From Escherichia coli (GTDB lineage Bacteria > Pseudomonadota > Gammaproteobacteria > Enterobacterales > Enterobacteriaceae), in NCBI RefSeq assembly GCF_003334815.1, contig NZ_QOWO01000040.1: 33,548 nt of DNA. One strand, given 5' to 3'. A program made the position numbers and the translations under genes. The notes below the pieces were generated by a model. The model ran no database searches. It had not been told where the DNA came from and saw nothing but the letters and a program-made list of their open reading frames with translations. Below are positions 13,554-13,730 of the stretch, piece after piece; position 1 is the first letter of the stretch, and each line of letters starts with the position of its first letter.

Positions 13554-13730
13554 ATGAAGGAGAAACCAGATAAGTCATCGGAAAAAGGGGTTTATGTCAC
13601 AATAAAACTCGATCCCAGGTTGAATGCATTTATCGAAGAGAAAACGAAAACATCTTTGCTTAGTAAGAGGAAGCAAATTATTTACTTATTAATGCAGAGT
13701 ATGCGTATTGATGGATATATGGAGCGTTAG
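13554..13730 (+). CDS. Small RHH-like protein (58 aa) upstream of the T4SS operon, candidate regulator
   Basis: Strand-helix-helix pattern (VYVTIKLDPRLNAFIEEK ... KRKQIIYLL); below track cutoff; weak RBS. Confidence 0.35.
   Translation: MKEKPDKSSEKGVYVTIKLDPRLNAFIEEKTKTSLLSKRKQIIYLLMQSMRIDGYMER

Follow-up and report, generated by a model that had tools for sequence, protein, structure and literature searches.

A small gene at the head of the pilX operon of IncX4 plasmids encodes a predicted ribbon-helix-helix protein and candidate feedback repressor

What does the small gene do that opens pilX, the operon of IncX4 plasmids that encodes their type IV secretion system (T4SS)? Worldwide, these plasmids rank with the chief carriers of mcr-1, which confers colistin resistance, and they rely for their spread on pilX expression driven by the activator PixR; two questions remaining from the published work are what leaves that operon near-silent outside mating and what role falls to cds9. 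The stretch of DNA analysed here (the window) is a complete 33,548-bp IncX4 conjugative plasmid from Escherichia coli, contig NZ_QOWO01000040.1, in which the corresponding open reading frame (ORF) occupies positions 13554-13730; the window features described below lie on the plus strand unless stated otherwise. A first-pass annotation made from the sequence had singled out this ORF as a candidate autoregulator of the pilus operon. The gene itself was already known as the uncharacterised cds9; new here are the predicted placing of its product in the ribbon-helix-helix (RHH) class, the grouping of its homologues into an unmodelled family that occurs solely in T4SS operons led by VirB1, and the PixR-type gene that is its constant partner. 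The biology is expected rather than surprising, but it touches on an unsettled point in how mcr-1 plasmids spread.

The ORF begins with ATG, encodes 58 amino acids (aa; translation MKEKPDKSSEKGVYVTIKLDPRLNAFIEEKTKTSLLSKRKQIIYLLMQSMRIDGYMER) and ends with TAG at 13728-13730, and two bases separate it from the ATG of pilX1, the virB1 homologue, at 13733, exactly as the first-pass annotation had it. The length alone is unremarkable: when 13377-13732 is shuffled, 6.5% of the shuffles hold an ORF that starts with ATG and has 58 aa or more. Homologues were sought by tblastn and by running profiles exhaustively against 1.84 billion representative proteins, and the family proved very small, with 13 representatives at E<1e-3; a word-indexed protein search recovered only variants of >80% identity. 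Besides an IncX4 variant that is 90% identical (locus L017), the homologues comprise a second IncX4-typed lineage with PixR-1/2 (L003, L004), IncX7 plasmids including Yersinia pestis pJARS35 (L007, L020-L022), and five further metagenomic lineages on differing backbones, Rep3 and TrfA replicons included. The position directly 5' of a VirB1-like gene is kept in at least eight diverged plasmid lineages, and each member whose context is readable immediately precedes, on the same strand, an SLT/VirB1 gene that is the first of a VirB2-VirB3/4... operon. In 7/7 lineages with sufficient flank there is a PixR homologue (25-100% identity), and the gene is constantly accompanied by a gene of the PixR type and by a T4SS operon that VirB1 leads. 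Such strict co-occurrence with PixR over IncX4, IncX7 and several other lineages of plasmids points to a control cassette of two genes that has been conserved.

The 45-residue core of the family aligns without gaps at 31-56% identity. Across the eight lineages the mean pairwise differences at codon positions 1, 2 and 3 are 0.49, 0.35 and 0.66, and this order, 3 > 1 > 2, is a coding pattern; the frame of the ORF is moreover the only one open in all eight. Between the ORF and its IncX7 homologue the non-synonymous divergence (dN) is 0.39, with synonymous divergence (dS) saturated. Judged from these alignments, the ORF is a genuine conserved protein-coding gene. It is annotated as the hypothetical protein WP_000660496.1 in some RefSeq records and is mostly absent from the annotation of IncX4 and IncX7 records, pJARS35 among them, and the family has no Pfam or NCBIfam model; the gene has therefore been overlooked in comparative plasmid studies.

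Published primers identify both this gene and its neighbour. The primers BAD-cds9_F and BAD-cds9_R of Yi et al. (mBio 2022, PMC8725589) fit the window from 13554 onward and up to 13730, one nucleotide differing, and their BAD-pixR primers fit both ends of the gene at 12871-13164, which makes the ORF cds9 and its LuxR-type neighbour PixR. In that study cds9 of the IncX4 plasmid pHNSHP23 is a hypothetical gene without a proposed fold, family or function (PMC8725589). The LuxR-type gene that the first-pass annotation had noted alongside the ORF is accordingly an experimentally proven pilX activator, a 97-aa LuxR-C/sigma70-r4-type helix-turn-helix (HTH) protein with NCBIfam sigma70/LuxR-type HTH matches. 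The sole Cappable-seq start in the transfer region lies at 26,338, "exactly 42 bp upstream of cds9" (PMC8725589); in the sister plasmids pHNSHP10 and pHNSHP49 the ATG of the ORF is at 26296 on the minus strand, which agrees with a transcription start in the window at 13512, an A 42 nt 5' of the ATG. Cappable-seq and reverse transcription PCR put cds9, pilX1-11, taxB and trbM in one operon (PMC8725589), and the ORF first described as lying upstream of the T4SS operon is, more precisely, its co-transcribed first cistron. PixR binds the 120 bp 5' of cds9 (PpilX) and activates 130-fold, and overexpression of PixR raises cds9 13-fold (PMC8725589). With a PixR-dependent promoter and a linked pixR homologue, the gene belongs to a PixR regulon, and IncX7 copies are found in pJARS35 and others. 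The transfer genes are silent in pure culture, for which the authors invoke a repressing or sequestering factor. We found no paper besides Yi et al. that mentions cds9 and none that links PixR to an RHH protein; a later IncX paper from the same group makes no mention of cds9 (PMC11880322).

The protein is predicted, with good support, to be a ribbon-helix-helix DNA-binding dimer. Structure prediction was one of the checks proposed in the first-pass annotation, and an AlphaFold2 (AF2) model of a linked dimer gives the RHH fold, an intertwined dimer with a two-stranded antiparallel ribbon. DSSP assigns a strand to residues 13-19 and helices to 21-30 and 38-53, the same in the second copy, which reproduces the strand-helix-helix character read from the sequence; the predicted local distance difference test score (pLDDT) of the core is 78-89, residues 1-12 form a disordered tail, and the 58-aa protein has no signal peptide or membrane segment. 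The family follows the pattern h-[Y/H]-h-T-h-[K/R/Q]-L ... LN-x-FIE ... S-x-R-S-K-R-x-Q, in which the strand carries a conserved alternating [Y/H]-x-T-x-[K/R/Q] and S-K-R caps helix B at its N-terminal end. RHH proteins are expected to read bases and contact phosphates at just such positions, with polar residues alternating along the ribbon and basic ones capping helix B, and the strand pattern and S-K-R cap would suit sequence-specific reading of DNA via the ribbon.

Matches to sequence models stay below threshold. Three of eight members match PHROG "Arc-like repressor" families at E 0.006-0.05, and single members match Pfam RHH_5 (7.9e-3) and TraY (1.1e-2); these sub-threshold matches recur and appear to point the same way, to RHH. 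With hhalign, the profile aligns with CopG gap-free and in register at P=0.005 and a probability of 7%, and the comparison with Arc is not significant. Pfam, run on the single protein, returns only a spurious EstA match (E=0.14), NCBIfam has no match for the protein or any of 8 family members, and a search of PDB sequences with two profiles finds nothing at E<=10.

On its fold and its position, we tentatively propose that the protein is a feedback repressor of the pilX operon, a reading that we rate a little short of even. It is favoured because of the fold, the place at the head of the operon, the partnership with PixR and the near-silence of the operon outside mating; that added cds9 did not bring transfer back, and that a relative (L016, below) has a large palindrome ahead of the gene, are counted on the same side. 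PixR would switch on PpilX, the first product of the pilX operon would be a small Arc/CopG-type RHH protein acting as a dimer, and this dimer would bind back to PpilX around the -10 element and transcription start and damp further transcription; PixR would be the accelerator of such a negative feedback and the RHH protein its brake. For the missing feedback element, an operon-first RHH protein is the obvious candidate. To call it an autoregulator is reasonable given the fold and the position but remains inference, and the same holds for DNA binding, the position of the operator and the sign of regulation.

The layout has good precedent. The ORF is the first cistron behind a regulated promoter, and this arrangement is classic for RHH autorepressors, for instance in CopG-RepB, TrwA-TrwBC, Arc/Mnt and many antitoxins. 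CopG (RepA) of pMV158 and Arc of P22 are the prototypes, and the ORF product has no significant sequence similarity to either; they control replication or lysogeny genes, whereas the ORF heads a T4SS operon and its operator is only a candidate. TrwA of the IncW plasmid R388 is a small RHH protein that heads a conjugation operon and represses its own promoter. The likeness to it is one of description. TrwA is encoded first in trwABC, an operon for DNA processing, and binds oriT, whereas the ORF heads a mating-pair-formation operon. KorA of IncN and IncW plasmids (R46, L018 3903-4184) is a small annotated transcriptional repressor encoded beside the VirB1-like gene where an MPF_T T4SS operon begins; at 93 aa it follows the VirB1-like gene, whereas the 58-aa ORF precedes it, and homology to IncN KorA was rejected on an hhalign probability of 0.2% against R46 KorA.

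Where might such a repressor bind? PpilX, the PixR-responsive 120-bp fragment of Yi et al. for which a lacZ fusion and mobility-shift assays are published, corresponds to 13434-13553 (the pilXpromoter-R primer is 13434-13453). From the published start we deduce a weak sigma70 core at 13477-13505, with a -35 element TTGTTG (13477-82), a 17-nt spacer and a -10 element AATCAT (13500-05); scanning for the sigma70 consensus turns up no promoter ahead of the gene in the window, L016 or L009. Strong constitutive promoters in the relatives had also been considered, and this idea was dropped since the scan calls none in L016 and L009. A palindrome scan finds a dyad, TGCGAATCATGTTCGCA, at 13496-13512 (strand not assigned), over the inferred -10 element and the transcription start, which is a speculative candidate operator. 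It is identical in L017; its near-matches elsewhere in the plasmid amount to one 3-mismatch match inside an ORF, which is not meaningful. The motif CGAATCAT has two copies in the whole 33.5-kb plasmid (13435-13442 and 13498-13505), both in PpilX, on the same strand and 63 bp apart, and the upstream copy is not kept in L017 although PixR is identical.

Other lineages have promoter elements of their own. All four IncX7 promoters (L007 ~2482-2498 and the equivalents in L020-L022) carry a perfect dyad, ATCATAAT-N-TTTATGAT, aligned with the -35 region of the IncX4 PpilX, and this dyad makes a good PixR(X7) box candidate. In L016, at 1435-1465 (also in L014 and L015), a perfect 31-bp palindrome, GAGATAATCGTAATTCGATTACGATTATCTC, lies between a -35-like element and the ATG and is matched in 0/200 shuffles. 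A lux-box-sized AGGTTGCATAWTTGCAACCT is seen in L008 (3918-3939) and L004 (2403-2422) in a divergent promoter region, with virB6/virB5 on one side and the RHH-virB1 genes on the other. Either PixR or the RHH protein could be the binder of these elements.

Genetic data on cds9 come from one study. Transposon sequencing (Tn-seq) and deletion scored cds9 as needed for transfer, and providing cds9 in trans on either of two vectors failed to complement the deletion, for which the authors presumed polarity (PMC8725589). The deletion arms in Table S3 of that study correspond to 13554-13593 and 13616-13655 in window coordinates (PMC8725589); an inverted FRT-cat with its P2 site 5' was substituted for just 22 nt (13594-13615, codons 14-21, those of the predicted beta strand), and the remainder of the ORF and the promoter were left in place. 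With polarity built into the allele, the published loss of transfer is not assignable to the protein, effects in cis and in trans are inseparable, and the experiment has no bearing on autoregulation. The failed complementation is equally compatible with a repressor and with polarity.

Several results weigh against the repressor proposal or against the fold on which it leans. The genetic score is that of a gene required for transfer and not of an inhibitory one, though both lesions are polar. The RHH fold is based on one engineered linked-dimer prediction from a 10-sequence alignment; an AF2 model of the monomer from a 5-sequence alignment gives a single long helix at low confidence (predicted template-modelling score, pTM, 0.33) and was judged uninformative, and no RHH sequence model is significant in Pfam, NCBIfam or PDB sequences. 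The dyad at 13496-13512 is no better than 85% of shuffles, the stretch aligned to it varies among the IncX7 plasmids, and a k-mer search of the upstream regions of all lineages found no common motif. Between the ORF and its close relative in L017 there are 6 non-synonymous changes, all conservative, and 2 synonymous ones, a dN/dS of ~0.7 from small counts that is uninformative on selection. The Shine-Dalgarno sequence of the IncX4 ORF is itself weak, GGA, 7 nt upstream.

Alternatively, and with clearly less probability, the protein might be a TraY-like positive or architectural RHH factor that helps the activator fire PpilX, bends oriT DNA as a relaxosome accessory, or both, and that is required for transfer. 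The traJ/PY/traY layout of F makes a striking parallel, and TraY is among the top structural matches. TraY of F-like plasmids is a relaxosome component at oriT and enhances PY, and it is a tandem RHH in one chain, whereas the ORF product is a single 58-aa unit without the second repeat; the best i-Evalue to Pfam TraY (PF05509) is 1.1e-2, below threshold and in 2/10 family members. The annotated relaxosome partner in the window plasmid is TaxA, a NikA-like RHH accessory protein that already adjoins the relaxase, and not the ORF product; homology between the two was considered and rejected. PixR alone activates PpilX-lacZ 130-fold without the plasmid, and no co-activator is therefore needed. Trans complementation from the two vectors failed, and polarity of the inverted FRT-cat that replaces the 22 nt accounts for the deletion phenotype. 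In a broader form, similarly improbable in our view, the protein would be a trans-acting factor indispensable to IncX4/IncX7-type transfer, either as a TraY-like architectural partner of PixR at PpilX or oriT or as a gate that makes PixR depend on recipient contact. If this were true, PixR and the RHH protein would form a new two-protein switch defining a clade of MPF_T conjugative plasmids that includes the main mcr-1 vehicles.

It is unlikely, more so than a TraY-like role, that the gene has no regulatory part at all and is either a cistron that delivers ribosomes to pilX1 by translational coupling or a small T4SS assembly or adaptor protein. The GGAG Shine-Dalgarno sequence of pilX1 (13721-13724) lies inside the 3' end of the ORF, and translational coupling to pilX1 is possible because stop and next start are 2 nt apart; in L009, L011, L014/L015 and L003/L004 the junctions overlap by 1, 4, 8 or 38 nt, and the deletion was not complementable in trans. 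The gap to the VirB1 gene is 2-3 nt in the window, L017 and L007 but 106 and 152 nt in two lineages (L008 and L010), and coupling is for that reason not universal. Nor would a pure coupling device keep a 45-residue amino-acid pattern where the DNA is near saturation, and the predicted fold is of the DNA-binding type; there is neither a signal peptide nor a membrane segment.

More doubtful still is an anti-activator that binds PixR and holds it inactive until mating, as TraM does the LuxR-type TraR of Ti plasmids. The strict co-occurrence of PixR and the ORF speaks for it, but the gene lies 3' of the PixR-dependent promoter and its product is therefore made only after PixR has acted, while the RHH fold favours DNA over protein as a partner and there is no similarity to TraM. 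Least probable by far is a chance ORF in an AT-rich leader whose function lies in RNA or DNA: the shuffle frequency of its length, the weak Shine-Dalgarno sequence and the missing annotation would allow it, but the reading appears effectively refuted by the comparative data (conservation over eight lineages, the coding substitution pattern and the open frame), and the RNA of leader and ORF folds no better than shuffles (z = -0.26) and reaches no Rfam family's gathering score, sub-threshold matches being confined to a terminator hairpin.

Between pixR and PpilX lies eex (13161-13376), which encodes an EexN-family entry-exclusion lipoprotein (NF033894 Eex_IncN, E=7e-19), followed at 13396-13424 by a strong intrinsic terminator with 11-nt perfect arms (13396-13417) and a T-run, which ends the pixR-eex transcript before PpilX. 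Downstream, pilX1 (13733-14353) is the second cistron of the operon and encodes a 206-aa VirB1-like SLT lytic transglycosylase (NF010438 VirB1, E=1e-16; RefSeq annotation). The taxC stop lies 76 bp from the pixR start, and this spacer holds an inverted repeat at 12807-12840, GCAGGTGAACAAAG-N6-CTTTGCTCACCTGC, whose 14-nt arms are 93% complementary; it could be an operator or attenuator for pixR.

The window plasmid has no annotated resistance gene (no mcr-1). It carries hha together with genes for an H-NS-family protein, for a type IA topoisomerase and for toxin-antitoxin pairs (HicAB and RelE/ParE-type); the H-NS and Hha that the plasmid encodes might be additional silencers of the AT-rich PpilX. 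The 1.6-kb stretch around the ORF is 99.6% identical to the E. coli plasmid NZ_CP024861.1. The comparison with L017 is less even: between these two IncX4 plasmids (window 13161-13730 against L017 2224-2816), taxC, pixR, pilX1 and pilX2 share 98-99% DNA identity, whereas eex shares just 71% at the DNA and 65% at the protein level and the eex-ORF spacer 85%. The ORF itself has 6 amino-acid changes between the two, among them T16S and K18R on the strand predicted to read DNA. This mosaic patch looks like recombination centred on the entry-exclusion gene.
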